A stretch of 64,000 bases of DNA, taken from positions 17,545 to 81,544 of the forward strand of contig JAUXMZ010000075.1 of NCBI GenBank assembly GCA_030683105.1, in the 5' to 3' direction. The position numbers were made by a program, and so were the translations under genes. Below the pieces are notes generated by a model. It saw nothing but the letters and a program-made list of their open reading frames with translations. It made no database searches and had not been told where the DNA came from. Below are positions 31,470 to 59,433 of this stretch, piece by piece (within the stretch, counting starts at the first letter, position 1; the number at the start of each line of letters is the position of its first letter). Source of the stretch: Burkholderiales bacterium. GTDB lineage: Bacteria > Pseudomonadota > Gammaproteobacteria > Burkholderiales > SG8-41.

Positions 31470-32408
31470 ATGTCTAACAGCAAATCCAACGTAGTCATCA
31501 TCGGCGGCGGTATCATGGGGGGCGATATCGCGATCATATTCGCCGCCGGCGGCTGGGATGCCCACGTGATGAGCCCGTCGCAGAAAACGCGGGACGCACT
31601 GCCGGCCCGCATCGCTGCCGGGTTGAAGCAGTTGGGTGTCGGCGCAGCCCAGGCGGGAAAAGTCTCCGCCTACCCCAAACTCGAAGACATCGACTGGAAA
31701 CAAGTCGATCTGGTGATCGAGGCGGCGACCGAGGACCTTGCGCTCAAGCAAAAGCTTTTCCAGCAGGTCGAGGCCCTGGCGCGCCCTGACATCCCGCTGA
31801 CGAGCAACACCTCGAATTTTCCGATCAGCGAAATCGGCAAATCACTCAAGCACAAGAACCGCCTTGCCGGCACCCATTTCTTCATGCCCGCGCACCTCGT
31901 GCCGCTGGTGGAGGTCGTCAGCGGCAGCGACACCGATCCGAAAGTCGCCGAGGATTTGTGCGCGCTCATGAAAAAACTGGGCAAGGCCCCGATCTGGGTC
32001 AAGAAAGATGTCCCCGGCTTTGTCGGCAACCGGATACAGCACGCCATGATGCGCGAGGCCTTGTATCTGATTGACGAAGGAGTCGTTTCTCCCGAGGGTG
32101 TGGATGTCGCCGTGCGTTTCGGCTTCGGCTTCCGCTTTATTGCCTGCGGGCCGATCATGCAAAAGGAAATGTCGGGCTGGGATACCAATTATCTCGTCGG
32201 CAGCGCCCTCTACCCCCATCTTCACAATGAGACGGCCTATCCTGCCGTCATCAAGGATATGGTGGACCAGGGTCACATCGGCATGAAAACCAAGCGCGGC
32301 TTCTGGGAATGGACCGACGACAGTGCCGCCAAGGAAAAAACCCGCATCGAGAAGGCGCTGCAGGCCGGGTTCGAGATCATTCGCAGCGATCTCAAAAACC
32401 AGACTTGA
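31470..32408 (+). CDS. 3-hydroxyacyl-CoA dehydrogenase family protein
   Basis: IIGGGIMG, VIEAATEDLALK, SNTS, HFFMPAHLVPLVEV and PGFVGNRIQ motifs. Confidence 0.93.
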   Translation: MSNSKSNVVIIGGGIMGGDIAIIFAAGGWDAHVMSPSQKTRDALPARIAAGLKQLGVGAAQAGKVSAYPKLEDIDWKQVDLVIEAATEDLALKQKLFQQVEALARPDIPLTSNTSNFPISEIGKSLKHKNRLAGTHFFMPAHLVPLVEVVSGSDTDPKVAEDLCALMKKLGKAPIWVKKDVPGFVGNRIQHAMMREALYLIDEGVVSPEGVDVAVRFGFGFRFIACGPIMQKEMSGWDTNYLVGSALYPHLHNETAYPAVIKDMVDQGHIGMKTKRGFWEWTDDSAAKEKTRIEKALQAGFEIIRSDLKNQT

Positions 32409-35400
32409 GCAACTGCTCGAATTCCAGCGCGGGCACTGGCCGGCTGAACAAGTAGCCTTGCGCCGCGTCACAGCCTATGCTCTCGAGCACGCTCAGCTGC
32501 GCTTCGGTTTCCACGCCCTCCGCCACGATATAAAGACCGAGGCTGTGGCCTAGCGCGACGATGCTGCCCGCCAGCGTTTTCGCGTCCGGGCTGGTCGCGA
32601 TCTCCCGCACAAAGCTGATGTCGATTTTCAGAATGTCGACCGGCAGCCGCCGCAAGTAACTCAGCGACGAGTAACCCGTGCCGAAATCATCGATCGACAG
32701 TATCATGCCCAGCGCCTTGAGCTGATTCAGCGATGGAATCAGCTGGTCAATATTCTCCATCAACTCGCTCTCGGTAATCTCGATACACAACGAAAGCCGG
32801 CGCGTCTCCAGCCCGGTGATTTTCAGGATCTTGCTTACCTGGTCTATAAAATCAGGGGTGCGCAACTGCCTCACCGATACGTTCACAGCCATGCGGAATT
32901 CATTACCCATCTGCCGCCCCCAGCTCCGGTGCTGCGCATCCGCAGCGGCCAGCACCCACGCCCCAATACCCGTAATCAGCCCTGTGCGCTCGGCTATCGG
33001 GATGAACACGGCGGGCGAGACCTGCCCCAGGGTACGGTTATTCCACCGCAGCAGCGCCTCGGCGCCGGTGATCGCGCGGTCGGCAATGCGCACAATCGGC
33101 TGATATACCAGGGACAATTCGTTGCGATCGATCGCCCCCGCCAGTTCGACCTCCATGCGGTGGCGATCGTGCACCTGCTGGTCCAGTTCCGAAGAGTAAA
33201 ACGCTGAAGCGTTGCGCGGGACCAGGGTCATGTTGTTGAGCGCAACCTCGGCGTTGCGGATCAGCGTTGCGACATCGGTGCCATCCTGCGGATAAACCGA
33301 GATCCCCATGCTGCCTTCGGTGGTAATGGTGTTTTCCTGCCACGAAATTGCCCTGGGGAAGGCGGCAATAATCCGGTTTGCGGTGATGGCCGCGTCATCC
33401 ACGCTGCTGACGTCGGCGAGCAGGACCCCGAACTCGTTGTCCCCCAACCGCGCCACAGTGTCGCCAGGGCGCACCATCTCTCCCAGATAATCGCCGACCC
33501 GCATGAGTACCTGGTCGACGCCGGCCCGTCCATACTGTTCATTAATCTGCAGGAACCGCCCTACGCGTATTACCAGCACTGCCGCCACCCGCTGCGCACG
33601 CGCTGCCCGTAAAAACAGCTGCGCAGCACGGTCTTCAAACAGCACTCTGTTGGGCAGACCGGTAACGCGGTCAAAGTTGGACAGCTGGTAGACATGCGTG
33701 CGCTGTGCGATATGATCGAGCCCGAGCCCCGCATCCTCGGCAAGCTGCTGCAGCAATCGCACCTCGTCGTCGTTAAAAGCGCCCGGCATCGACGACCACA
33801 GCACCAGCACGCCGGCAACCTGGCCGTCCACGGTCAGCGGAAAAGCCGCAACGGCCCGCACGCCCAATTTGAGCAATCTCTTCCTGGGTCCGGGCGCGGG
33901 TGAAATAACAGCTTCCTGTTCAATCACGGGTTTGCCGCTGCGCCACGCGCGTACCAGCGGAGTACCCAAAGGCTCGAGCGTCTTGACCATGTCGGGCTGC
34001 AGGGCTTCAAAGTGATCCCTGCCCGCGCCGGCGTGGCCCGCGAGGCGCGACGCCGAGGTGTGACGATCTATCATGATGATGGCGGCGGTAAGATAGCCGC
34101 CGTTTTTAACCGCGATGTCGCAGGCTTGCGTGGCCAGGGCCCCCGGCTCGCGTATGCGCAGAATAGCGCTGTTGATTTCGGTCAACATGACCTGGACCCG
34201 CGTCAGTTGCGCAATTCTTGCATCTTTTTCGATATGCTCGAGACCCAGCGCGGTGTCGGAGGCAAGCCGGAGCAGCAACCGCTCTTCGGCTCCGTCGAAT
34301 GCACTCGGGTTCGCGGAATGCAGCGCAATAATGCCGGAAATTTTTCCTTCGATGACCAGCGGCAACGCCGCGATGGCGCGGCAGCCGAATCGAGAAACTT
34401 TTTCCGCCCATTCGCGCGCCGCCGATGCCTCGAAGCCCTGTTCAATCACCCGGTGTCCGGTTTTGAGAGCCCTGACAATCGGTCCGTCGCGCGGCCGGAC
34501 GGGAACGTTCAGATCGATCATGAGCGCCGCGAAATGTTCCATGGCTGCGCCGGCATGCGCAACAAGACGCGCCTGCGAAGTGCGCTTGTCGACCCAGAAA
34601 ACACTGGCACAGAGATACCCGCCGTCGTCGACCGCGATGCGGCAGGCCTCCTTCAGCAAGGTGTCGCGATCCCGGATCTGAATGATCGCGCTGCCGATCA
34701 TGGTCAGCACCGCGTAAATCCGGTTGAGATGGCTGATTTTCCCGAAATTGTTCTCGTTGCTTCGCGCCATGTCATTGAATGCATTTTCGAGCACGGCGAA
34801 TTCACTCGAGTCGCCGGCTGCGGATATCCGGGTTGTGAGATCGCCCGCCGCGAGACGGCGGGTCGCTGCAAGCAGGGTGCCGACTCGTCTCAGCACGAGT
34901 GTGTTGCCTCCGACAAACATGATCGCGGCCATCGCGCCTATGGCAAGAATCAGCGCCAGAATTCCGCTGACCAAGGCCTTGTTGGCTTGTGCGACCACCT
35001 GCGATTCGGGCACGCTGACGACGACATAGCCGCCGGTTTCGCGATCGCCCCCGATACGCGAGTACGCATTGATGCGCCTCAGCGAATCCAGCCCGACTAA
35101 GGACTCGACGCTGATCTCGCCGCCGGCCTGGGCAAGCGCCCGGTGCAAGGTTGTGCCAGCGATGCTCTTGCCGACCATGGCGTCCGGCGGCAATCGCGCC
35201 ATCACATTGAAGCCGGGGTCGATCAAGGTAACGGTCTGCCCGGGAAGGTAAGCCGCGTGCGTGAACAGCCTGGACAGCCGCAATACCGCGTAGAGCAAGC
35301 CGCGCGCCGCGCCATCGTTTCCCGGAATCGGGAGCGCGAACGCCATCGACGGCTCCCCGGTAACCCGGCCCATCTGGTAGTCGCCCGCCGCGAAGTTGCC

Positions 35401-44298: not shown

Positions 44299-45399
44299 TT
44301 ATAATCGTATTGAAAACACGGAAATCGTCTCCATTAAGCCGCGCAATTCCATATTGCCGCGCGGTACGACGCGGCTTGCGGGCACCAGCTTGCGGATCGA
44401 CTCGAAGAGTTCGCCCGAAACCAGGGCCTCGCCCGCCACTGCTGCCTGCATGAGGCGCGAAGCGATATTCACCGTGTTGCCGATCACGGTGTAGCTCATG
44501 AAATTCGGCGAGCCTACGTTGCCGATGACGGCCTCGCCGCGGCACATCCCGATGCCCAGGCCGCCGGTGATGTCGTAGTGTTCGCGCCAGCGTGCCGCCA
44601 CCGACCCGAAGCGCGACTGCATCTCCTTGGCGGTGGCCCAGGCGCGCGCCGCGGCATTGGGCTGCGGAAAGGGCACGTTGAAGCCCACGAGCAGGCAGTC
44701 CCCTGACATATTGAAAATCGTGCCGTCGTAATGGTGAGCCGCTGCGGTGAGCGCCGCGAAATACTCGTTCAGCATTTCCACGAGCGGTTCCACGTCGATT
44801 ACCTCGGTCATGTGGGTAAAGCCGCGCAAGTCAGCGAACATGACCACCACCTCGGCGCGCTGCGCCTTGGCGCCGAATGGCACGGTTTCGCTGATGATGC
44901 GTTCGACCAGGCGCGGCGAGACATAGCGCGAGAACGCCTTCTGGATCGACTCGCGGTGCGCTGCCGCCGCGAGCGTGTTTCTCATCCGCAGCGCCAGTTC
45001 GCTGGGGTCGACAGGCTTGCGCAGAAAATCGGTCGCCCCGAGATCAAGTGCTCTCAGCTTTGTTTCTGGATCCTCGGCGGTAGTAAGGACGATGGTCGGA
45101 ATGTGTTTCAGCACAGGGTCTTTCTGCATCTCTGCAAGTACGTCAAAGCCGGTTACCTTCGGCATATTGATGTCGAGCAGCAGGACTTTGGGACGCTCGC
45201 GCCGCAGCATGGCGATGGCGGAGGTGGAGTCCGAGGTCGACGTGAACCGACTGAATCCCGCCTGCTCGAGAAATGCCTGGGTGAGCTCGATCACCAGCGC
45301 CTCGTCATCGACCATCGCCACGAGAGCCTCGCCCAGATCGCCCAGGTTCATGCTCCCGGATTGGAGCAATACTTCGTCCGCTTTTATTGGTTCGCTCAT
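44299..45399 (-). CDS. Response regulator receiver - class III nucleotidyl cyclase
   Basis: REC (VDDE, LLLDINMP, KP) plus cyclase (FADLRGFT, GDC, GNTVNIASRL). Confidence 0.93.
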   Translation of the reverse strand: MSEPIKADEVLLQSGSMNLGDLGEALVAMVDDEALVIELTQAFLEQAGFSRFTSTSDSTSAIAMLRRERPKVLLLDINMPKVTGFDVLAEMQKDPVLKHIPTIVLTTAEDPETKLRALDLGATDFLRKPVDPSELALRMRNTLAAAAHRESIQKAFSRYVSPRLVERIISETVPFGAKAQRAEVVVMFADLRGFTHMTEVIDVEPLVEMLNEYFAALTAAAHHYDGTIFNMSGDCLLVGFNVPFPQPNAAARAWATAKEMQSRFGSVAARWREHYDITGGLGIGMCRGEAVIGNVGSPNFMSYTVIGNTVNIASRLMQAAVAGEALVSGELFESIRKLVPASRVVPRGNMELRGLMETISVFSIRL

Positions 45400-45421
45400 T
45401 CATGCCTCCCTGCCGGCGACC

Positions 45422-47917
45422 TCAGGCGACCGCCGATGTCTCCTGCGGCGCGATGACGCGCCGTGCCATTTGCCGCAATTCACCCAGGATCTGTGCCACC
45501 CGCTCGCCTTCGGCGGCCTTGGCGGCGGTCTCGAGCTGCACGGCCGGCGCCATGAACACATCGTAACCCATGGAACCCGCGGACCCCTTGAGCCAGTGGG
45601 CAAAGTTCGCGATCTCCACGTAGTCGTTCTGCGATTCCATCTGCTGCGTCTCGACGAGCCGCTCGTGCAGCCTCACCACGAACTTGCGCAGGATAGGCTG
45701 CAACCGCTTCTGTCCGGCTAGGCGAGACGTGATGGACGTTACCGCTGTGTTGTCGGCGTTCGCCTGCGGCGCGTCGACTGTCGAGTTGATGGCGCCCTCA
45801 GCCGCCGCCGGATCAATGCGTTTACCGCCCAGCAGCAAGGCTATGCTGCGGATCAGCCCATCGATGTCGATAGGCTTGGTCAGGTATACGTTGCAGCCCG
45901 CCTCCATCATCTGGGCTTCAAATCCACTCATGGCATTCGCGGTCAACGCGACGATCGGAATCTTTATGCCACGCTCGCGAAGCGTGCGGGTCGCGGTAAA
46001 ACCGTCCATGACCGGCATCTGCATGTCCATGATGATGAGATCGAATCCGCCCTTCATGGCCATCTCGACGGCGACCTGGCCGTTCTCGGCCTCTTCCACC
46101 CAGAGGCCCTGTTGCGAGAGCACCAGCGACACCAGCTCGCGGTTCTCGGCGCCGTCGTCGGCGATAAGAACCCGCGCCGGGGGAATGCTCCAGCACTCCT
46201 TCACCTCGGCCATGTCTTCGTCAAGATGGGCATCGATCTGCTCGGGTGTGAGCATCGGCACGCCTTCCAGCGGCCCCGTCTCGAAGGTCACCGTAAACAC
46301 GCTGCCCTTGCCCACCTTGCTCGCCACGGTGACATCGCCGCCCAGCGCCCGGGCAAACTTTTTGCTGATCACCAGCCCCAAGCCCGTGCCGCCGTATTTG
46401 CGCGAGATCGAGCTGTCGGCCTGCACGAAGGCCTCGAACAGCGCGCCGATACTCTCCTGCGGAATGCCAATGCCGGTGTCGATGACGTCCAGCGCATAGT
46501 GCGGTGAATTGCCCGGCAGGAACCGGGCACTCACCCGTATGCCGCCGTGATCGGTGAATTTGATCGCATTGCCGAGCAGGTTGAGCACGATCTGGCGCAA
46601 CCGCAGCGGATCGGACCGGACCGTTTGCGGCACCGGGCCTTCAGCGGCAAACCCGATGCTGATCATCTTCTCGCGCGCCCTGACCTCGAATTCGCGCACC
46701 GCCTGGTTCACGATCGTATGCGGCGCACAGGAAATAAGCTCGACTTCGAGCCGCCCCGCCTCCACTTTGGACAAGTCCAGAATATCGTTGATCAGCGCAA
46801 GCAGGTGCGTACCGCTGTTGTATATGGTGTTGAGGTGCTTGGTCGTCTCGCGCTCGTTCTTGCCGAAGCCCCGCCGCAACAACTCGGTGAAGCCGAGTAT
46901 CGCGTTCATCGGGGTGCGGATTTCGTGGCTCATGTTCGCAAGAAATTCGCTCTTGGCACGATTTGCCGACTCGGCTTCGTCGCGAGCGAACTTGAGCTCG
47001 ACCTCTTTTTTCTCGAGTTCGGTAATATCCTCCAAACTGATCAGCACGCCGCCGGGTTTGCTGCCGGCGCCCAGCACCGGCGAGCAGTTCAACAGAAACG
47101 TGCGCAGGGTGCCGGCAGCATCCTTAAGACGTATGGTCTCGTTGCGCTGTATCGCCGCGTCGTTCAGCGCCTTTGTCCATGGATAAACCACTGCCTCGCC
47201 CGCGGGCGTTGCCGTGGCCCAGGGAATGGCGGCCACGCCGGTGCCGAGCATCGCTTCCGAGGATTTCCCGAGGAGATGGGCAAAGGACTCATTCGCCAGC
47301 ACGATGTTCTGGTTCCGGTCGATGATCAGCAGGCCCTCGGTCAGGGTATCGAGCGCCGCGCGCACGCGGCCCGGGATCGCGCGCGACGGGTCCAGTTGGC
47401 GCAGCACGCGACCGAGATAAAAATAAAACGCAGTGAGGCACAGCACGAAGATGAAGGCCAACAGCAGGACGCCGGGCCATTCCAGGATGCCGCGAATCCC
47501 GGGGCTGATCAGGGGCTCGTAGCGCATCTCCAGCTGGCCCCAGCGGTGCTGCTCGGCCCAGATCGGCACCACGAGCTGCGTATCGGTAGAGAGGCCGCCT
47601 TCCATCGGTTCCCAGCGCGTTGCGTGCTCGCCTGTCACGACGACGATGCGCCCGTCGCGGTCGCGCACCGCGATCGAGAGGATCTCCGGATTGCGAGCCA
47701 TGACGAAGCGCAGCACGGATGCAAGTCGTCTTTCCTCTTTAGTGGTCATCAATGCTGTCGCACTGGCAGCCAGGGATTCTGCCAGGCTCACCCGCGCGTG
47801 GCGTTGCGCGCTCAGGCGGTCCGGAACGAATCCCAGCAGCATGGCGAACACCACCGCAGTGGTCACGATCGCGGTGAGGCCAATCGCAACGTGCATTTTA
47901 GTGCTGAATATTTTCAT
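45422..47917 (-). CDS. Hybrid sensor histidine kinase (TM-PAS-HisKA-HATPase-REC-Hpt)
   Basis: [44 protein letters not shown] and Hpt AHWLKGSAG motifs. Confidence 0.95.
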
Positions 47918-50900
47918 GTGCGCTTCGCGTCTACGGGGACCTCGGAAAAAGATGCGATGGCCTGTTCGTCTTCCTCACTGGTTTCGTCATCCTCGTCATC
48001 CACGCGCGCGAGTATCGGCAGCGGGTCGAGCAGCCGCCATGCCGGAAGGGCCGAGAGCATGCTTGCGGCAAGCGCGCCACCGCGGATGAGCCAGATCACA
48101 TAGGCGGCCGTCATGCTGAGGCTGCCGGCGGTGAGCGTGGCGATGGTACGCGTCTGGATTTCGTCCTGCTCGCGCAGACTGTCCTGCAGGCGCGCCAGGT
48201 CGACGCCGAGTCCCACCGCGCCAGCCAAACGTCCCTGTTGTTCGCCCAGTTGGAAAAGATCCAATGGCCGCACCTCGATCTGTTTGAGGACGTCGGCAAT
48301 CAGTTCGCGTACTACCTCTGCGCCTGGCGCAGCAATCCCGTAGGTCTGGAGCCGGTACTCTGGAAGTCCGGCACTGGCGGCGAGCATCTGCAGGCTGCCG
48401 CCGATCGATGCAAAAACCGAGCTGTTCACGGCCAGGGGCAGGAATTCCGCGTCTATCGGCAAAGATGTCCCGCCAGCGGGCACAACCGGGCGGCCTGTAG
48501 TCGAGGCCGGCTGAGACTGCTGCGGCGCGTTGCCCCCGGCTTGCGGGGTAACGACCACTGTCGCGCCGGGCGCGGCCGGAGAGGCGGATTGCTGCGGGCT
48601 GGTGCTCGGCGGGAGCAGGTCGACAAGCGTAATAACGCTCACGGCGAGGGCATGCGTGACGACCGGAGACGACGCGGCGCCGTCGCTCAGCTCAAAGCTC
48701 ACCGTGCGGGTTCCGTTGAACGGCACCGCGCTCGCATTGGAATAGGTCACCGCGCGCAGCGCAGCCTGCCATTGCGCCAGTGTCGCCGTCGCGCCCGCCG
48801 AGTTCAGGCTCAGCGCCCCGCTCGCGGCGTTGTAACCGCCGGCAATGTTGCCCATCGTCGCCGGGTTGTTGGTGAAGCCGAGCGCGTCTTCCGCGGCCCG
48901 GAATCCGGCGCCGATCGAAACCGTCGCGCTCGCAAGCGTGACGTTGTCAAGATCGGCGACCGCCACATTGTCATCCACGAGTATCGGCACGCCCGCCGTG
49001 ATATAGGTCGCCGTACCAGGGCTTGCCGTCACGACCGGCGCGTCGTTCACCGAGGTGACAGCCACCGACTGCGTCGAGGCCGCCGAACTGCCTCCCTCGC
49101 CGGTCACCACGACGCTCACCGTGCGAACCGCGGTGCTGGGCATATCGCTCGTATTGGTATAGGTCACCGAACGCAGCGCCGCCTGCCACTGCGCGAGCGT
49201 CGCCGTCGCACTGGCCGAGCTCAGGCTCAGCACCCCGGTCGCGGCGTTGTAGCTGCCCGAGATGTTGCCCATCGTCGCCGGGTTATTGGCGAAGCCGAGC
49301 ACATCTTCCGCGGCTTGCCAGCCGGCGCCGATCGAAACCGTCGCGCTCGCGAGTGTCGTGCTGTCCGGATCGCTCACCGTCACCGCGTCATCGAGAACGA
49401 CCGGCGCAGACGCGACGTTGTTGCCTTCAGTGAAGGCCGTCGTCCCGCCGCTCGCGGTCACCGTCGGCGCGACGTTCGGCAAGACCGTGATGGCCACCGC
49501 GTCCGAATCCGAGAGAGACCCGCCGGCCCCCGTATTGCCTAGGTCGCTGCTGGTAATCGACAACGACGCCGCGCCGCTGTAGTTGGCACCCGGCATGAAG
49601 CTCAGCCCGTTCAACGCTGCGTTGATCGCCGTGACCGTGCCGCTGAAAGTCATCGCGCCATCCGCGGTGCCATCACCCGCACTGAAAGTCAGTCCGGCGG
49701 TGCCTGCCAGGGTGATGTCGCCGTTGGTACCGTTCAAGGTGACCTGCACGGAGCCCGCGCCGGCATCGGCGTCCCCGACGGAGATCGCGTTGCCGTTGCC
49801 CACCGAGAAAACCAGCGCAGAGTCCTCGTTGGCCGACTGCGCACCGGGCACCGCGTTGACCGGCGCGTCGTTCACCGGGGTGACCGTCACCGTCGAGGTC
49901 TGCGTCGCAGCCGTCAGTACTCCGTCATGGGCCAGCACCGTCACCGCGCGGCTGACCGTGCTCGGCGCCTCACTGATGTTGGTGTACTGAATCCCCTGCA
50001 GAATCGTCTGATAAGTCGCCACCGTGGCCGGCCCCGTGATCGACAGCACCCCGCTCGCCGCCGCGTAGCTCACCGTCAGCCCCGCGCCGCCCGTCGCCGC
50101 CGCCGCATCGAGCGCGAGCGACTCCACCGCGTCGCCATCGGGGCGCGCCGTCAGTGTCACGATCAGCGAGGCGAGGTTCGCCGAATCCACGTCCGCCAGC
50201 GTGCCCGCCGGCGCAATCAGCACCGGCGTCTGCTCGGTGAACGCCACCGTCACGTCCTGGCCCGCACTTCCAGCGTTCAGATCCACCACCGGCGCATCAT
50301 TCACCGCCGTCACCGTGATGCTCGAAGTCTGCGTCGCGCTCGGCGTGGTCCCGTCGCTGGCCACTACCGTCACCAAGCGGTCAGTCGTGGTCGGCGTCTC
50401 GCTCGTGTTGTCGTATCGAATGCTCTGCAGGATCGACTGATAGGTCGCCACCGTGGCCGACCCCGTGATCGAGAGCACGCCGGTGCCGGCCGTGTAGCTC
50501 ACCGTCAAACCGCCCGTCACCGTCGCCGAGAGCGACTCCACCGCGTCGCCGTCGGGCCGCGCCGTCAAGGTCACCGTCAGCGAGGCGAGGTTCGCCGAAT
50601 CCACGTCCGCGAGCGTCGCCACCGGCGCTATCAGCACCGGCGTCTGCTCCGTGAACGCCACCGTCACGTCCTGGCCCGCACCGCCCGCGTTCAGATCCAC
50701 CACCGGCTCGTCGTTCACCGCCGTCACGTCCACCGTGATCGCGTTCGGCGCCGCAGCAAACGCGTTCGCCTGGTCACGCACACTGAACGTGAAGCTCGCG
50801 TAACCCACACCGTTGCCGTTCAACCCCGGCTCGAACGTCAGGTTCGGAATGCTCGCTGCCGTGATCACCTCTGTCGCCGTCACCGCCACGCCCGAGAGCT

Positions 50901-53034
50901 TCAGCGTGCCCGCGCCAGGCAGCGCGTCAATGCGCACCGCACTCAGGCTGTCTCCCGCATCCACATCGCTAAAGCCGAAGTCCGCCGCACTGAACACGTA
51001 GGCCGTGTCCTCGTTCGTCGTCACCGCCTTGTCCGCACCCGTGGGCGCGTCGTTCACCGCCGTCACGGTAATGGTCATCGCATCCGTATCCGATTGGGCG
51101 CCACCGGTGCCCGTGTTGCCCTGGTCGTTCGTCGTGATCGACAACGACGCCCCGCCGTTGAAGTTTGCGGCCGGTATGAAGCTCAGCCCGTTCAGCGCGG
51201 TGTTGATCGCCGCCACCGTGCCGGTGAAGGTCATCGTGCCATCCGCCATGCCGTCGCCGACACTGAAAGTCAGCCCGGCGATGCCCGCCAGGGTGATGAC
51301 ACCGTTTGTGCCGGTCAGCGCGACCTGCACCGGATTCGTGCCCGCATCGACGTCCGCGATGGAAATCGCGTTGCCGCCGGCCACGGAGAATACCAGCGCC
51401 GTGTCTTCGGCGGTCGACTGCGCGCCCGGTACTGTGTTCACCGGCGCGTCGTTCACCGCCGACACCGTGATAAACGAGAACCGCTCCACGCTCGGCGTGG
51501 TCCCGTCGCTGGCCACCACCGACACGATGCGGTCGGTCGTGGTCGGCGCATCGCTCGTGTTGTTGTACTGGATCCCCTGCAGGATCGTCTGGTAGGTCGC
51601 CACCGTGGCCGGCCCCGTGATCGAGAGCACCCCGGTCGCCGCCGTGTAGTCCACCGTCAGCCCCGCGCCGCCCGCCGCGGCCGTCGCCGCCGCATTCAGC
51701 GCGAGCGACTCCACCGCGTTGCCATCGGGCCACGCCGTGATCGTCGCCGTCAGCGACGCCAGGTTCGCCGAATCAAAGTCGACGATCGTGCCCGACGGCG
51801 CAATCAACACCGGCGTCTGCTCGGTGAATGCCGCCACCTCGTCCTGCCCCACACCCGCCGCGCCGTTGAGATCCACCACTGGCGCAGGGTTCGAGACCAC
51901 ACGGAAGGCTAGGTCCTTCGCGGGCTGCGCGGTGGCGTTAGCGAAGAAGGTACCGCCGGGGTATCCGGGAGAGGCGACTCCCACATAAACGTTTCCCCCG
52001 CCGACGCCCTTGACGCTGACGTAATAGGTCGTGCCGTCGGCGAGCGTCGCCGGCGCGGAAAGCGATACGGACATCCAGGCCTCCGATGTGCCGAGGCTCC
52101 TGCGCGCGACGGTTCCGGTCTCAATAATGCCACTACCGCCGCCAAGACTACTGCGCAGCTCGATGGTAATGTTGCCTCCCGCAGGGCTGACGTTCTTGTA
52201 CAGAACGAGGTCGATCTGGTCGACAGAGTAAAAGCCCGCTCCGCTGGTGTACTTGAACGACTGACTCCATGTGCTGCCGCTTCCGGAAATCTCGTAGACG
52301 TTGTCGGCCATGCTGGCGAAGGACGGCTCGTAGGACGTCAATACGATGCTCGGCAGCAGGTGGGACCAGGCGTCCTGCTCGCTTACGCTCAGCGCGACCG
52401 GCACGTCGATCGCACCGGTTGCATATTCCAGTTTCCAGTCGCCGCCCAGGCTCGTATGGCCGGTCGCGTCGTCCGAGGCGGCGACATCAGCCCCGGTCAG
52501 GCGCGCGAGCGTATCGGCCAGCAGCCGTCCCTGCGCCGTTGCCGCGACATCGCAGCCGTAAAGGAGGATATCGGCGTCCGCGGTCAGCGCCTTCGCCCAG
52601 CTTTCGACCCGGTCCGGATTGCCTTGAAGCGAATCGGCCGTGACCAGTTCGTTGCCCAGCTGGATGACGCCGTCGCCGCCGTGGCCGATGATATGCAGCG
52701 CAGCCACGTTCTCGCGGCCCGCGAGCGCCTCGGAGATCTGCGCCAGTCCATCCCGGCCGGCATCGAGCATGACGACATCGACCTGGCGTCCGCTTTGCGC
52801 GGTGATGTCCTGGACGAGAAGCGCGTAGTCAGGCGTGCGGGCATCGATGAATACAATTTCATGCGGGGCGTTTTGCACCGCCTGCTCGTTCTGGGCCGCG
52901 AACTCGAGATGGGGATCGACGACGCGTTGCTCCGCGGCGCCCGGCCCGACCACCGCCGAGGCCAGCAGCGGACCGAGATCCGCCGAGTACAGGATCCGTG
53001 GCTCGAGTGATTCTATGGTCGGGCGCTGGCGCAT
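47914..53034 (-). CDS. 1706-aa surface/adhesin-like protein: LEPR-XLL motif, DUF4347, Ig/cadherin-like repeats, C-terminal membrane anchor
   Basis: N-terminal [10 protein letters not shown]; DUF4347 (VFID...LHIIGHG...LLYGC...GGDWKLE); repeated VNDAP units; C-terminal YVIWLIRGG...[14 protein letters not shown] plus acidic tail. Confidence 0.9.
48625..51882 (-). repeat. Intragenic tandem domain repeats (order A-B-C-A-A-B-D-D)
   Basis: A ([20 protein letters not shown]) at about 51451-51882, 50299-50706 and 49870-50292; B (DAPVN.VPGAQS) x2; D (ATVSIGAG...NNPATMGNI) x2. Copies share long DNA identities. Confidence 0.88.
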
Positions 53035-53882
53035 TATCGTTTAGGATCGCGTTCTGCGACGGGGGGGTTGGCGTCGACACCGAGGTCGACCTTGCAACGC
53101 GGCCCGGCTGGCAGCGAGTAGTTCGGATTCGGCAACTCGAGCCTGATCCGGAAGGTATTGCTCGGGCCATCGATGATCGAATCGACCAGCACCACTTTCG
53201 CCTGCCTGGGCTTGGCGTTGGGCAGCTCGGGTGTGACCGTGAGCGACGAACCGACCTTTATGGTGCCGTAGAGCGACGCGGGAATGACGACTTCCACCCG
53301 CAGGGGATTGGTGGTGGCGACGCGCACGATCGGCTTTTCCTCGACCCGCTCGCCCCCCGACATGTAACGCTCGACGATGACGCCATCGGCCGGGCTGCGT
53401 ATGGTCCGCAGCTCGAGCTGCGCTTCGGCGAGTTGCAGCTCGCGTCCCCAGATGCGGCGCTGATCCTTCGCCTGCACCAGCCGCTGTTCGGCCACCTCGG
53501 CTTCCGCGCGCGCCTGCTCCAGCGCCTGATCGGAGATGAATTTTTTGCTCACCAGATCCTGGGCGCGCGCAAGCTTCTGGCGCGCGAGCTCGTAGTTCGA
53601 TTGCGCGGCCTGGATTTCCGCCGACACCTTTGCCCGGCTGGAAGCGACGCCCACTGCAGCCCGCTCGACATCGGCGCGCAGCATGGCAACGACCTGGCCT
53701 TTGGCAACGCGGTCGCCACGCTCGACCTTGACCGCTTCCACTACGCCGATGACCGGGCTGCCGACATCGACCATGCGAGACGGTTCGATCAGGCAGCCCA
53801 GCGGCTGGGCGCCGCTCACCCAGGGACTCGCTGCGCTGAGGAGTGCTGCAAAACCTATTCTTGCTGCGCTGCGCATAGTCAT
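53034..53882 (-). CDS. Membrane fusion protein (HlyD/RND adaptor family)
   Basis: Signal peptide; VGSPVIGVVEAVKVERGDRVAKGQVVAML, IRSPADGVI and SNTFRIRL motifs. Confidence 0.9.
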   Translation of the reverse strand: MTMRSAARIGFAALLSAASPWVSGAQPLGCLIEPSRMVDVGSPVIGVVEAVKVERGDRVAKGQVVAMLRADVERAAVGVASSRAKVSAEIQAAQSNYELARQKLARAQDLVSKKFISDQALEQARAEAEVAEQRLVQAKDQRRIWGRELQLAEAQLELRTIRSPADGVIVERYMSGGERVEEKPIVRVATTNPLRVEVVIPASLYGTIKVGSSLTVTPELPNAKPRQAKVVLVDSIIDGPSNTFRIRLELPNPNYSLPAGPRCKVDLGVDANPPVAERDPKR

Positions 53883-55840
53883 CTGCTTGATGTCCCCATC
53901 ATCGGTTCACGATCGAACGCCTCGTCCTGCAGGCGCAGCTGAAGGCGCAGCCGGTAACGCCGTCGCCCCTCCCACCATAGTGCCACACGCGCGAGCAATA
54001 TCCCCACCCAGCGCAGGCGCAATTCCCCTGCCCGTCCTGCCCAACCCGTGATGAACGCCGGCAGGCACGCGACGACCGGCGCCGACTCGAGCGACAGCAG
54101 CGTTTCGCAGCTTCCCGCCTCGCCCCGCCTTGCGCAACGCCCCGTAAACTGGCGGTCGATGCGTCGCGAGGCATTCGCCTGGCACAGCATCACGTGCAGC
54201 CCGCCGGCTCGGGCAAGACGTTCCGCGATCGCAATGTCGGTGCCCCGGCCCGCCATGTTGGTAGCCACGGTGATGCGCCCCGCCTGTCCAGCCGTGGCGA
54301 TCACGTGCGCCTCGTGCCGGTCCTGGCGCGCATTGAGCACGACGTGCGCGAGACCGGCAGCACCCAGGTGCTGCGACAGCACCTGCGAATCGGCCACCGA
54401 GTCGGTGCCGATGAGTGCGGCACCGCCGCGCGCCTGAATGTCCCGCGCGCGCGCCACGACGAAGCGCCACCGCGCTTTATGCGTGCCGAACACCCGGGTC
54501 GGAAGCACCACCCGACGCGAAGGTTGCCGCAGCGGCACCCGCAGCACCGGCACGCCATAAACCGCGCGCAGTTCCGCTCGCGACTCGATGAGCGTTCCGC
54601 TCATGCCGCACAGGTGCAGGTAGCGTGAAAAGAAACGTTGGTAGGTAATCTGCGCGGCTGTCACGAGCTCCGCGCTTGGCCGGCACCCTTCCTTGAGTTC
54701 GATGAACTGGTGCAGGCCGCGCGACCACGCGCGGCCAGGGGCAACGCGCCCGCTCGTGTCGTCGATGATGTGCACAGCACCATCGCGCACCAGGTAGTGA
54801 TGATCGCGATGAAACAGATGAATCGCGGCCAAGGCCATGCTTAAGGCTTCCTCACGGTAGCGGCGGACGCGCCACAGGGTATCGCCATCGGTCGACTGGG
54901 TTTCGGCCTTTGCGCGGCCATGTGCGGTAAGTTCAACCGCCCGCGATTCGGGATCGGTAACAAAGTCTTCGCGCGTGATCAGGCTGCGCGCGAATGCCAG
55001 AGCTCGCGTGTAATGCTCACGTTTGCCGCGATGGTCCTCGGCGCGCGAAAGAACGAACGGCACGCTGGCCTCGTCGAGCAGCACGCTGTCGGCTTCGTCC
55101 ACGATCGCCATGCACAAACCGCGCAGCAGCGTGGCAGGCGCGTCCGGGGTCGCCATGCGATAAGCCCGGCTGCGCAGCTCGCCTTCGACATCACGGCGCA
55201 AGAGACTGTCGCGCAAATAGTCGAAGACCAGTTCCTTCGCCGTGCAATATGTCACCGCGCAGCGGTACGCGCGCCGGCGCGCATCCATATCGAGCTCCTG
55301 CGTCACGACCCCGACATCCAGCCCGAGCGCGCCGAAGATGGGCCGCAGAGCGTCAGCGTCCCGCCGGGCGAGGTATTCGTTTGCGGTGATGACATGGACC
55401 GGTACTCGGGCGAGCGCAGCGGTAGCCGCCGCCAGCGCCGCCGCCAGCGTCTTACCTTCGCCGGTCGGCATTTCAACCAGGCGACGGTTGAGCATGGCGC
55501 GAGCGGCGATCATCTGCCCGGGGTACGGCCGCTGTCCCGTCTGGCGATTCGAGATCTCGGAAAAGAGGGCAAATGCCGCCACCTGCAGGTCGTCCGCCAA
55601 CCCGCGGCGCGCGAACTGCTGGCGCACCCTGTGCACTTCGCTTGCACACTGTTCCGTAGACAAACGAATCATTGCCGGTTGCAGCGCCTCGACGGCGCGC
55701 AGGAAAGCGGCATGGGGCGGCACGCGGTTGGCAACTCGCGCTGCCCGGCGCGCGAGCCAACCGGCGCCATTGCCGCGCCGCTCGGGATAATGGCCCCACA
55801 GCACCCCCGGAATAGGCAGTTCGGCTGATCGCATGTTCAT
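53879..55840 (-). CDS. Secondary SecA-like (SecA_DEAD) ATPase lacking the C-terminal scaffold/wing domains (653 aa)
   Basis: EMPTGEGKT, VITANEYLARRD, DYLRD, VDEADSVLLDEA, GMSGT, ATNMAGRGTDI and RRIDRQ..GRCARRGEAG; the protein ends about 60 aa later. ATG 55840 overlaps the upstream TGA. Confidence 0.9.
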   Translation of the reverse strand: MNMRSAELPIPGVLWGHYPERRGNGAGWLARRAARVANRVPPHAAFLRAVEALQPAMIRLSTEQCASEVHRVRQQFARRGLADDLQVAAFALFSEISNRQTGQRPYPGQMIAARAMLNRRLVEMPTGEGKTLAAALAAATAALARVPVHVITANEYLARRDADALRPIFGALGLDVGVVTQELDMDARRRAYRCAVTYCTAKELVFDYLRDSLLRRDVEGELRSRAYRMATPDAPATLLRGLCMAIVDEADSVLLDEASVPFVLSRAEDHRGKREHYTRALAFARSLITREDFVTDPESRAVELTAHGRAKAETQSTDGDTLWRVRRYREEALSMALAAIHLFHRDHHYLVRDGAVHIIDDTSGRVAPGRAWSRGLHQFIELKEGCRPSAELVTAAQITYQRFFSRYLHLCGMSGTLIESRAELRAVYGVPVLRVPLRQPSRRVVLPTRVFGTHKARWRFVVARARDIQARGGAALIGTDSVADSQVLSQHLGAAGLAHVVLNARQDRHEAHVIATAGQAGRITVATNMAGRGTDIAIAERLARAGGLHVMLCQANASRRIDRQFTGRCARRGEAGSCETLLSLESAPVVACLPAFITGWAGRAGELRLRWVGILLARVALWWEGRRRYRLRLQLRLQDEAFDREPMMGTSSR

Positions 55841-57978
55841 GCCACCGGGTTGAAATGCTTGAGGAAGAGCTGGCGCAGGCGGCGATACCACTGCCCGGCC
55901 AGCGGTTCGGAACCCAGATCGAAGCGCACCCACACGCGCTGTCCGAGGCTGCGCAATGCTTCGCCTTGCAGTTCGAGATCAAAAAGGAACACCGGCTCCA
56001 GCGTCCGCATCCCTTCCTTGTCGGCGGGATCCGTGGCGTGGCGGCCCCCGCCGCGTTCGCCAAGCGCGGGGCTGGGAAGCGCATGAGCGGCGGCAGGCGC
56101 CGCACGCTCGAGCCGGGCCGGCATCGGCGATCCCCGTCCTGGCAACAGAACTTCAGCGCCGCGGCTGCTGGCACGCAAAAGGGGCGCACTCTCGTTGGGG
56201 ACGACCGCGCGAACGGCCGTGGGTGCCGAGCTCAGGATATAACCCAGCATCGCGCCTTTTTTCAAGAAGGCGCCTGGCAGATCCTCGCTGTGCGGCAGGA
56301 CCAGCTGACCCGTCACTTTGCTGCGCACGGTCAAATAACCGATGCGCTCCTCGATGCGTTCCAGTTCGGACTGCGCGCGGACCAGCTCCTCGGTCACGTT
56401 TTTCGCTTGCGCCGGGTCGCTCAGCAGCGACTGGTAGCGCTGCGCCTCCAGGGCCTGCACGCGCGAGCGCAAGGCGATGTGCTCGGTCTGAAGCATGGGC
56501 TCGGCAAGCTCCACCAGCGGCGTCCCGGGGTGGACGACTTCGCCTTCGCGTGCCAGAACCCGCAGGACAAAACCCTCTGTTTCCGCTCTGACCTGTGCGC
56601 GCTCGGAGGGCCATACCACCCCTTGCACGAGCAACATGCTCGGAAACGGCACGGCAAAAACCAGCACCAGCGCGCCCACGCCACCCAGTGCAGAGAAGAG
56701 CGCCGCGCGCCGTCGCGCGCGCCCCAAGGGCAGCGCGCTGAGCAACGATTGAATGGTGATGAACGCCGGGCGGATCACCATGGATACCAGCACCAGCGCC
56801 GCCGCCAGCCAGCCCAGCCATTCCGATTTGCCGCCGAGCCAGAGGATCAACGCCAGTGCCAGCGCAAGGCGATAAGCAAGCGAGGCCGGCGCGTAGAAGA
56901 GCAGCCATTTACGCTCGTGGCGCGTCATCACGGGCGCCGATGCCCGGTCCGTGCCGCCGAGCAACCGCAGCGCGAGATATGTCCAGTACGACTGACTGCG
57001 CACGGCAAGGTTGGGCATGTCCAGAAGATCACAGAACAGGTGATAGCCGTCGAAGCGCAGCAACGGGTTGCCGTTGAAAAGGAGCGACGACGCGCCGCAC
57101 AAGAACAGCGTCACGAACGCAACGTCGCTCAGCAGACCCGGTTCAACCTCGAGCCATAACCAGAGCGCGACCACCCCAAGGCCGAGTTCCACCATGATCC
57201 CTGCCGCGCTGACAGCCGCCCGATGCCAGCGGTCGCGAAAGGCGTTTGCCGCCGAGGCGTCGACATAAGGTGCCGGCATGAAAAAAAGGAAGGTCACGCC
57301 CATCTCGCGCACTTCGCCACCCCCTCGCCGCACGGCGATGGCATGCGCCAACTCGTGCAACCCCTTGATGACGGGGTAGCAAAACCAGGCGAGGATGAGA
57401 TAGTACGTCGTCGACATGTATTTCGCAGCGTGTGCTGCAAGCGCACTCCAGTTCATGGCGACAGCAACCACAGCCATTACCACTGCGGCCGCCCAAAGTG
57501 CCAGCGTTGTCGGGCGCAGCAGCGGACGCAAAGCCGGCTCCAGACGATCGAGCAGGCTCGACGGATCGAAAAGCGACACGGGAAAAGCCAGCGGGTTCAC
57601 CCATGGCCGACGGTTGCGCGCGCGCTTGGCACGCTCACGGAAAAGACCGGCGATATCCGGCGTGGTCTCGAACTGCACGAGCTCAGCCTCGCTCAGCCGC
57701 GAGAGGATGCGCACCACCTCGTCCTGCGTCGGCGCATCGTCGCCGAATTTTTCCAGGAGCAGCGTCCACACCTGGTTGACCGACGTGCGGCCATCGAGGC
57801 GCCCTATGAGTTCGTAGGCCGGTCGGTTGATCCGGTTCTGCCGCCCATCGGTTCCGTTGATCAACAGATACCAGGCCTCGCCTTGATAGATCTGTCGCTG
57901 CACACGCACAGCAGCCCGCAGCCGCGGATGCAAGTCGCTTACACGGTACCAAAGCGGGCTGAAGAGCGATTCGGCCAT
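55837..57978 (-). CDS. PqqD/RRE-like domain - M50 (site-2) metallopeptidase - MFP-like fusion
   Basis: N-terminal RLDGRTSV..V...L...DEVVRILSRL (PqqD-like); HELAH and NPLLRFDG (M50 Zn ligands); multiple TMs; biotinyl-lipoyl/coiled-coil MFP region. Confidence 0.85.
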   Translation of the reverse strand: MAESLFSPLWYRVSDLHPRLRAAVRVQRQIYQGEAWYLLINGTDGRQNRINRPAYELIGRLDGRTSVNQVWTLLLEKFGDDAPTQDEVVRILSRLSEAELVQFETTPDIAGLFRERAKRARNRRPWVNPLAFPVSLFDPSSLLDRLEPALRPLLRPTTLALWAAAVVMAVVAVAMNWSALAAHAAKYMSTTYYLILAWFCYPVIKGLHELAHAIAVRRGGGEVREMGVTFLFFMPAPYVDASAANAFRDRWHRAAVSAAGIMVELGLGVVALWLWLEVEPGLLSDVAFVTLFLCGASSLLFNGNPLLRFDGYHLFCDLLDMPNLAVRSQSYWTYLALRLLGGTDRASAPVMTRHERKWLLFYAPASLAYRLALALALILWLGGKSEWLGWLAAALVLVSMVIRPAFITIQSLLSALPLGRARRRAALFSALGGVGALVLVFAVPFPSMLLVQGVVWPSERAQVRAETEGFVLRVLAREGEVVHPGTPLVELAEPMLQTEHIALRSRVQALEAQRYQSLLSDPAQAKNVTEELVRAQSELERIEERIGYLTVRSKVTGQLVLPHSEDLPGAFLKKGAMLGYILSSAPTAVRAVVPNESAPLLRASSRGAEVLLPGRGSPMPARLERAAPAAAHALPSPALGERGGGRHATDPADKEGMRTLEPVFLFDLELQGEALRSLGQRVWVRFDLGSEPLAGQWYRRLRQLFLKHFNPVA

Positions 57979-59433
57979 CTAGACTCCCAGGGACCAGGTC
58001 ACGAGGCGCAGCCACTCGATCGCGCGATGCGTTGCGATCCAAAGCACGGAGCGCTCGCCGGTGGCGACTTTGGCAACGCCGCGCATCCCGGGTCGCAACA
58101 TGTTGCCCGGCGTATCAAACACCCCCTCCACCTCGAAGTAATTTCGTCCCTCACCCGCCACCGCCATGGGCAGAATGCGGCTCACGCGAAACCCGTGCGT
58201 CTCGCCAGGCGTCGCGGCTATCGCGAGGCGACCGGGGAGTCCGGTCCGCAGTTGACCAACATCGCGCTCGTCGACTTCGACTATCACGCGGAAGCGCTCA
58301 TCCGGCGCCAGCGTCATGAGGACTTCGCCGCGCTGCACTGGCGCACCGAGCGACTGCGAAAGATCGCCCTTGATCACCACGCCGTCGAACGGTGCCCGGA
58401 TCTGCGCACGCTGGATGTGGTTATTGACCAGCGTCAGCTGCGCCTGCGCCTCTGCCGCCTTCGCATGATGGATCACAAGCTGCGTTCTGTCTGACCGTGC
58501 AAGTGCCGCCCCGTAAAGGTTCTCTTCCTGCGTCAGCTCGCTTTGGCGTTTGGCGCGTTCAGTCTGCAGGTCACGCTGGGATAACTCCGCGATGATCTCG
58601 TCTGCGTGCACCTTGTCGCCGGGACGCACATTGACCTGTTCGAGGAAACCGTCGATCGGCGCCGCCACGATGCGCTGAATGAAGCCTTCAAGGCGTGCCG
58701 GCGCGCTGACGTGATAGGACACGGGGACAAACATTGCGGCCGCAACAGCAACGACGGCCAAGCTCGCCAGTCGCGTACCTGCACGGGCCGATCCGGCGAT
58801 ACGGGTGGCCGACGCACGCCAGTCATCAAGCGCGACCCTCAAAAAGGCGCGCTGGCTCTTTCTTTTCAATTCGAGCAGCGGCGCGAGCAGGCAGGCAACG
58901 TCCTCGCTAAACGCGACATCTGTTCGACTGAACACCTCGCCTGCGCGCTCCAGCGTAATGGCACCGACGGCGCGTCCGGCATCGACCAGGGGAACGGTAC
59001 ACACGCCGCCGCCGAGCAAGGCATGCACCTCGCTATGGGCAAGGGTCACCGACAAACTGGAAGCGTCCTCGGGCGGCAATACAATAGTGGTCGCCTGCTC
59101 TATCGACTCGTCCATGGCGGCGCCGATTTTCTCGAACAGAGCATGGCGGCGGTCGAATTCAGCACCATGCGAGGTCGCAATGACACGAATGGCACCGCGC
59201 TCGAGCCAGCCTACCGTGACCCGGTCGCAACGCTGCGCTTTCGCCAGTTCATTGGCGAGCGAAGCGGCGGATTGCGCCAACCCCTCCTGGGACAGCACAG
59301 CCGCCTGCACCTCGAGAATGACTCCCGCCGCCGTTATCGAACCGGCAGCCCGTTTTTTATTCGGCTCCATGGGAAGTTCGTTACGCATATTCCATGCCAG
59401 TTTTGGGGGCGATGGTTTTTCAAAGCTCGACAA
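57979..59433 (-). CDS. GAF domain - membrane fusion protein (HlyD family)
   Basis: GAF (CDRVTVG...VCTVPLVDAGRAVGAITLER), TM helix, VAAPIDGFLEQVNVRPGD, IRAPFDGVV. Start may be 59388 or 59370. Confidence 0.87.
   Translation of the reverse strand: MSSFEKPSPPKLAWNMRNELPMEPNKKRAAGSITAAGVILEVQAAVLSQEGLAQSAASLANELAKAQRCDRVTVGWLERGAIRVIATSHGAEFDRRHALFEKIGAAMDESIEQATTIVLPPEDASSLSVTLAHSEVHALLGGGVCTVPLVDAGRAVGAITLERAGEVFSRTDVAFSEDVACLLAPLLELKRKSQRAFLRVALDDWRASATRIAGSARAGTRLASLAVVAVAAAMFVPVSYHVSAPARLEGFIQRIVAAPIDGFLEQVNVRPGDKVHADEIIAELSQRDLQTERAKRQSELTQEENLYGAALARSDRTQLVIHHAKAAEAQAQLTLVNNHIQRAQIRAPFDGVVIKGDLSQSLGAPVQRGEVLMTLAPDERFRVIVEVDERDVGQLRTGLPGRLAIAATPGETHGFRVSRILPMAVAGEGRNYFEVEGVFDTPGNMLRPGMRGVAKVATGERSVLWIATHRAIEWLRLVTWSLGV
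59385..59399 (-). promoter_or_regulatory. Possible sigma54 -24/-12 element
   Basis: Minus strand TGGCATG-GAAT-ATGC with correct GG-N10-GC spacing; overlaps the uncertain N-terminus of the first operon gene. Confidence 0.25.

Follow-up and report, generated by a model that had tools for sequence, protein, structure and literature searches.

The window, that is, the whole 64,000-nucleotide stretch of Burkholderiales DNA analysed here, carries on its minus strand a gene for a response regulator with a cyclase output, P0001, which by sequence comparison belongs to an old, conserved clade of class III cyclases devoid of the purine-selecting Lys and possessing Asn (less often Ser, His or Gly) in its place, together with Thr at the second specificity site. 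We consider it rather probable that P0001 is an active, kinase-driven class IIIb-type cyclase and that its product is for the most part cAMP, made with weaker purine discrimination. It is routine to annotate the product of a bacterial class III cyclase from two residues, and the Lys-free branch accounts for 45 of the 139 sequences in our tree of closest relatives. Now that cyclases forming cCMP and cUMP are known, branches of this kind are an obvious hunting ground for new messengers; should the enzyme make cAMP, it would provide a clean natural test of whether the Lys is dispensable.

The gene occupies positions 44299-45399 (minus strand) and, according to the ORF list and its translation, encodes a protein of 366 aa. 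Direct reading of the sequence places a Shine-Dalgarno-like GGGAGG (45405-45410, minus strand) 5 bases before the ATG, and a gap of 22 bp separates the gene from the stop codon TGA (45422-45424) of the kinase gene preceding it. The gene that comes next, coding for an oxidoreductase, is convergent, which makes the REC-cyclase gene the last of a seven-gene minus-strand operon. Both domains of P0001 are matched well over the Pfam curated cut-offs: the receiver (residues 27-138; 44986-45321, minus strand) scores 92.9 bits with Response_reg, and the catalytic domain (residues 180-357; 44329-44862, minus strand) scores 64.8 bits with Guanylate_cyc (PF00211), for which the cut-off is 21.9. The acidic pocket, phospho-acceptor Asp, Thr and Lys expected of a response regulator (PF00072) are all present in the receiver, as the acidic pair D31/D32, D76 (45172-45174), T106 and K128. 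In alignment A1, D76 never varies and each of the other four is at least 90% conserved; among 120 homologues, D76 is retained in 117. The two domains are joined by a helical linker (residues 139-179; 44863-44985, minus strand), delimited from the secondary structure of an AlphaFold2 model (a monomer built on 42 relatives, with a mean pLDDT of 86.5). Its long (132-157) and short (162-170) helices lie over a conserved F-x-R-Y-x-S-P segment, in which conservation reaches at least 90% at F156, R158, Y159 and S161 (alignment A1); we take this linker to resemble the cyclase transducer element found ahead of class IIIa/b catalytic domains. Pfam, phmmer and Foldseek all identify the catalytic domain as class III (IIIb-like), and the modelled domain superimposes on Pseudomonas aeruginosa CyaB (PDB 3r5g) with a TM of 0.90 and an rmsd of 1.5 A in Foldseek, so that the cyclase-homology fold is present.

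The phmmer match to CyaB (E about 1e-26 to 4e-26) was used to locate the substrate-specificity and catalytic residues, all given here in minus-strand coordinates. In an ungapped HMMER alignment, TIFNMSGDC of P0001 stands against TIDKFVGDC of CyaB, and Asn faces Lys. The DNA itself reads acg att ttc aat atg tca ggg gac, that is, T-I-F-N-M-S-G-D, with the Asn codon AAT at 44712-44710 (N230); the two neighbours of N230 in the F229-N230-M231 triplet (44707-44715) are clade-specific, K-type enzymes having D-K-F instead. At the second site MSYTVIGNTVNIASRL lies opposite MDYTIIGREVNLASRL and Thr faces Thr. This residue, T304 (F300...T304, 44488-44502), matches the class IIIb Thr of CyaB and is Thr in 116 of 120 homologues, and an aromatic residue (F300) stands four positions ahead of it where K-type enzymes have Arg. 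The first metal-binding Asp, D190 of FADL (44830-44832), is found in every one of the 120 homologues, and the second, D234 of SGDC (44698-44700), in 112 of them, one sub-lineage having Asn, Gln or Glu there. The transition-state pair N311...R315 of VNIASR (44455-44469) is also aligned to CyaB and conserved, and D190, D234, N311 and R315 together identify P0001 as a class III cyclase. The Lys of the first class IIIb specificity site, four residues before the second metal-binding Asp, is absent, N230 taking its position, and was restored by none of the alignments that we made. The signature of guanylyl cyclases (Glu at the first site; Cys, Gly or Ser at the second) is absent as well, the two sites being Asn and Thr, and relatives with D-E-F...R-G fall in groups separate from the N-type clade.

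Among the 120 closest homologues (83% to ~50% identity), the Lys position is filled by Asn in 114, by Ser in 5 and by Gly in 1, and the remaining catalytic positions are kept in 112-120 of the 120; the two nearest, P0002 (on a 63.8-kb contig) and P0003, are 83% identical to P0001. When related cyclase domains collected by an exhaustive HMMER search were reduced to 135 representatives of 50%-identity clusters, Lys was found in just 42 of them, the other residues at this site including Asn (23), Asp (19), Glu (17), His (12) and Ser (10). In a tree of 139 cyclase domains calculated by maximum likelihood from the closest relatives of P0001, the protein falls within a 45-member clade (SH-like support 0.95) made up of N/T (27), S/T (10), H/T (5) and G/T (3) enzymes, with no Lys in any member; Lys/Thr enzymes lie outside this clade and its sister. 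The clade is characterised by the motif F-N-M-[AS]-G-D-x-L-L-x-G-F and by an aromatic side chain at the position four ahead of the Thr, where Lys-type relatives have D-K-F-[IV]-G-D-x-[IM]-M-A-F-F and Arg, the co-varying replacements being D229F, K230N, F231M, R300Y/F and others. By this comparison the Asn is a conserved hallmark of a large branch of cyclases and not a one-off mutation. The spread of N, S, H and G over the clade is compatible with relaxed selection on base recognition as well as with several specificities, and no assayed member of the clade was found in the literature. The sister clade (P0137, P0132, P0170, P0205, P0187 and others) comprises REC and other cyclases with F-D-L...R-A, in which Asp at the Lys site is accompanied by Ala, Gly or Thr at the second site; we know of no assayed member in this clade.

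The first-pass annotation of the window had described intact metal-binding Asp and N/R pairs, an Asn codon at 44710-44712 in place of the purine-selecting Lys, and a Thr at the second site, and these descriptions are all borne out by the DNA reading and by the CyaB alignment. The alignment to characterised class III cyclases that it had proposed as a check leaves the Asn where it was. The replacement is therefore real, but it had been presented as a change in a single protein, and it is instead part of a motif that co-varies throughout a clade. The same annotation had envisaged an active enzyme of uncertain or relaxed specificity. A complete and conserved catalytic set fits the predicted activity, and the specificity, like the product, is not readable from sequence.

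CyaB (3r5g) and Spirulina CyaC (1wc0) are the best matches of P0001 in both sequence and structure, and the nearest solved structures all belong to class IIIb (the adenylyl cyclases CyaB, CyaC, bPAC and OaPAC, and the guanylyl cyclase Cya2). CyaB and CyaC, which are homodimers, share with P0001 the two metal-binding Asp, the second-site Thr and the Asn/Arg pair, but have D-K-F and Arg where its clade has F-N-M and Phe/Tyr, and their regulatory domains are MASE2 or others rather than REC. Their ATP specificity rests on the very Lys that is missing from P0001. Asn at the Lys position is shared with Rv1900c of Mycobacterium tuberculosis (PDB 1ybt/1ybu), reportedly (Sinha et al., 2005) an adenylyl cyclase with a small guanylyl side activity, in which mutation of the Asn is said to have had little effect. 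Rv1900c reportedly also falls into another subclass, its second site being Asp instead of Thr. It differs further from P0001 in having an alpha/beta-hydrolase N-terminus instead of REC, and His at the catalytic Asn site where P0001 keeps N311. It is a distant relative, not seen among the PDB matches listed for P0001, and, with the Asn alone in common, an assignment of P0001 to Rv1900c-like atypical cyclases was rejected. The atypical residues and dual activity of Rv1900c have been noted in the literature (PMC4886424). The coordinated shift of four to six pocket-proximal positions in the P0001 clade exceeds that in Rv1900c, and P0001 could have a different substrate.

We picture P0001 as a response regulator whose output would be a nucleotidyl cyclase of class IIIb type working as a homodimer. 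Autophosphorylation of the PAS-containing hybrid kinase, whose gene ends 22 bp upstream, would be followed by transfer of the phosphate to the REC and Hpt domains of the kinase and from there to D76 of P0001, phosphorylation of which would reset the helical linker and the cyclase dimer; the activated dimer would then form a 3',5'-cyclic nucleotide. Phosphotransfer, activation, catalysis and product are inferred in this scheme; what we observe are the domains, the residues and their conservation, the structure of the clade, the order of the genes and the kinship of the receivers. The enzyme is most likely active, and, with class IIIb adenylyl cyclases prevailing among the nearest solved structures and with the reported precedent of Rv1900c, its product is probably cAMP, formed with relaxed selectivity. 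A rich repertoire of cyclic-nucleotide genes in the genome of P0001, with four canonical Lys-type cyclases and ~17-22 cNMP-binding domains, is in keeping with this reading.

A competing reading, which we regard as possible though rather unlikely, treats the Lys-free F-N-M...Y/F-T clade as a separate specificity class whose main messenger is cGMP, a cyclic pyrimidine or another nucleotide, and not cAMP. The motif change is indeed coordinated and clade-wide, but the N/S/H/G variation speaks against a strict new code of recognition. Asp, or the Glu/Gly pair known as typical of Cya2-type guanylyl cyclases, is found in sister clades; the Glu for guanine is nevertheless absent from P0001, and the closest enzymes of solved structure, class IIIb adenylyl cyclases, have the same Thr. 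XC_0250, a cGMP synthase with non-canonical specificity residues, shows that the two classical sites predict poorly. A cyclic pyrimidine is suggested by the cytidylate cyclase EaPycC, a homologous class III-type domain in which R142, four residues before the second metal-binding Asp D146, specifies CTP (PMC11224242), so that a residue at the same offset also tunes pyrimidine choice. PycC, however, is devoid of REC, and the P0001 gene resides in a signalling and secretion operon, not in a defence island. P0001 matches the PADLOC PycC profiles with 54.8 bits, more weakly than the general family or CyaB (95 bits), and no Pycsar effector (cNMP-binding TM or TIR) was found among its neighbours; on these two grounds a Pycsar reading was rejected. 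The presence of four canonical Lys types among the seven cyclase-domain ORFs of the P0001 genome speaks for another specificity; against it, no dedicated receptor is encoded near P0001. We had also considered linking the loss of Lys, and of the Arg four positions ahead of the Thr, to a bicarbonate site of the sAC type, an idea that was dropped, the Arg not being established as the bicarbonate Arg.

The presumed phosphodonor of P0001 is the adjacent hybrid histidine kinase (45422-47917, minus strand), a protein of 831 aa in which Pfam recognises PAS, HisKA, HATPase_c, REC and Hpt domains. The five operon genes before it, identified with Pfam and NCBIfam and all on the minus strand, encode, in order, a GAF-MFP protein (57979-59433), a PqqD-M50-MFP protein (55837-57978), a truncated SecA_DEAD protein (53879-55933), an MFP (53034-53882) and a cadherin-like LEPR-XLL/DUF4347 cargo of 1706 aa (47914-53034). 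The first four correspond to the secondary SecA_DEAD/Peptidase_M50/HlyD/GAF locus of Kamneva, Poudel & Ward 2015 (PMC4452313), in which a cyclase, a histidine kinase and a response regulator are not mentioned as parts of the locus. The cyclase is a lineage-specific addition to the SecA_DEAD/M50 locus. A messenger dedicated to this operon, as the first-pass annotation had also suggested, finds little backing in the comparison: none of 40 related loci has a cyclase in the stretch inspected downstream of the module, most orthologues are located elsewhere, no cNMP_binding domain was detected by Pfam among the operon genes, and the GAF-MFP gene is present also in loci whose description includes no cyclase (PMC4452313). 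The GAF-MFP protein was itself considered as receptor of the cyclase product and rejected as unsupported. Its GAF domain, inspected by eye, has E-R and D-V instead of the N-K...F-x3-D-E signature of cNMP-binding GAF domains, which makes it a poor candidate for this role.

Related secretion loci were collected from 301 sampled genomes of the same order, 49 of which have the M50 fusion (G013 and G226 count only in the tallies). In 40 Burkholderiales M50/SecA_DEAD loci, the stretch downstream of the module was inspected over up to 20 kb, and over much less on short contigs; within it a cyclase domain was found in none of the 40, and a full-length ortholog of the hybrid kinase follows the cargo in 5. 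The gene after the kinase encodes a REC-GGDEF-EAL protein in four of these five LEPR/SecA_DEAD operons (L097:14612-16495, L098:4954-6768, L101:226-2106 and L102:3995-5884). On two soil-metagenome contigs (L139 and L140), the cargo, a kinase 64% identical to that of the window, a REC-cyclase and a REC-GGDEF-EAL protein are encoded consecutively, and the order of kinase followed by REC-cyclase recurs in L138. As a separate observation, the presence of REC-GGDEF-EAL genes after the kinase suggests c-di-GMP control of LEPR/SecA_DEAD adhesin export, reminiscent of Lap-type regulation.

The receiver of P0001, N-terminal extension included, is 52-62% identical to the receivers of the REC-GGDEF-EAL proteins from kinase-linked operons. 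Its identity to the receivers of remoter N-type cyclases is 30-40%, the cyclase domains of the latter being 42-61% identical to that of P0001. This pattern implies that the receiver goes with the kinase and that the output domain has been exchanged or added. The REC-GGDEF-EAL regulators (L097, L098, L101, L102 and L139) thus resemble P0001 in their operon slot after the kinase and in their receiver, but differ in output, which is c-di-GMP synthesis and breakdown in the former and a class III cyclase in the latter. Gene order and receiver kinship support the view that P0001 occupies or shares the slot of a REC-GGDEF-EAL regulator with a closely related receiver. No second copy of this receiver type was found in its own genome, where P0001 is, to all appearances, the sole dedicated response regulator of the kinase. 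Given this, and given the REC-GGDEF-EAL proteins of the related operons, the kinase signal would here exit as a cyclic mononucleotide instead of c-di-GMP turnover. The locus would then represent a natural swap experiment, in which one kinase family drives a REC-cyclase, a REC-GGDEF-EAL protein or the two together, beside a candidate secretion system for giant adhesins. Elsewhere in the window, at ~32404-33711 (minus strand) within an open frame of 1137 aa, a large GGDEF-EAL protein is encoded that does not have the shared receiver type.

Orthologues of the cyclase are for the most part located outside such operons. Those with 64-67% identity (L001, L133-L137 and G007) lie among unrelated genes and not beside the kinase or the secretion module. 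Of 11 close orthologous loci whose upstream sequence is at hand, only ~4 show linkage to the operon; six congeneric genomes yielded no ortholog. Orthologues with 42-53% identity are part of a strongly conserved signalling cluster (L002-L022, L092 and L143-L162; for example L015:9600-17800 and L021:9600-14600), in which genes for a stand-alone Hpt protein, the REC-cyclase (Asn type) and a REC-Ser/Thr kinase follow one another and the other strand encodes a single-domain REC protein of 129 aa and a PAS histidine kinase. About half of these Hpt-cluster loci also contain a DUF3391-HD_5 (HD-GYP-type) gene. Furthermore, an Asn-type cyclase domain forms the end of giant single-chain relays with the architecture CHASE8-HAMP-HisKA-HATPase-REC-Hpt(n)-REC and two to four copies of Hpt (P0122, P0123, P0127 and P0134, of 1474-1759 aa, as well as P0124, P0125 and P0129); one cluster member of this fused type comes from Candidatus Parabeggiatoa. 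The common theme of the clade members appears to be service as the output of an Hpt phosphorelay, and this theme is the strongest support for the kinase-to-cyclase wiring proposed in the window. The fused HK-REC-Hpt-REC-cyclase proteins lend Rosetta-stone support to the kinase as the likely phosphodonor, and the proposed wiring of P0001 to the adjacent hybrid kinase is supported. One might go on to view the Lys-free clade as a distinct class with a non-cAMP or deliberately mixed product, acting as the standard output of Hpt phosphorelays and here replacing c-di-GMP turnover. We judge this full combination unlikely; were it true, a non-cAMP or mixed signal would couple a surface-sensing kinase to the export or display of a giant LEPR-XLL adhesin.

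The gene order on the soil-metagenome contigs bears on another alternative, that P0001 is mainly non-catalytic and acts as a phosphate sink or competitor for the Hpt domain of the kinase, or as a regulatory partner of another cyclase. A sub-lineage 57-60% identical to P0001 (P0065-P0075 and L139-L141) has Asn, Gln or Glu instead of the second metal-binding Asp (MAGN/MAGQ/MAGE) and is otherwise conserved. Three of its genes (L139:4628-5740, L140:3026-4126 and L141:129-1262) lie in the same slot, between the hybrid kinase and the REC-GGDEF-EAL gene, and in L139 one kinase is thus followed by both types of regulator. Branched relays commonly employ single-domain and degenerate receivers as phosphate sinks, and this sub-lineage may consist of pseudo-cyclases or phosphate sinks. 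Loss of the Asp in it indicates that catalysis is not indispensable in every relative. In P0001 itself and in 112 of 120 homologues, however, the six catalytic positions are intact, and conservation of the whole domain (56-70% identity of P0001 to the sampled close homologues) is hard to square with a mere sink, which makes a non-catalytic P0001 improbable in our view.

Finally, the Asn could be put down to a sequencing error, or to an inactivating mutation that recently struck an ordinary adenylyl cyclase of the Lys type, since a single transversion from AAA or AAG to AAT would suffice. This is hardly credible and is refuted by the comparative data: Asn is found in 114 of the 120 homologues and in 27 of the 45 representatives of the clade, both of its codons are used across 21 distinct DNA contexts (AAC in 17, AAT in 4, each one base from a Lys codon), and the flanking residues co-vary. 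Outside the window, the same genome contains a cyclase-like ORF of 208 aa (G000:C76:34772-35248) with a degenerate E-N-D-L-S-R set at the six key positions.
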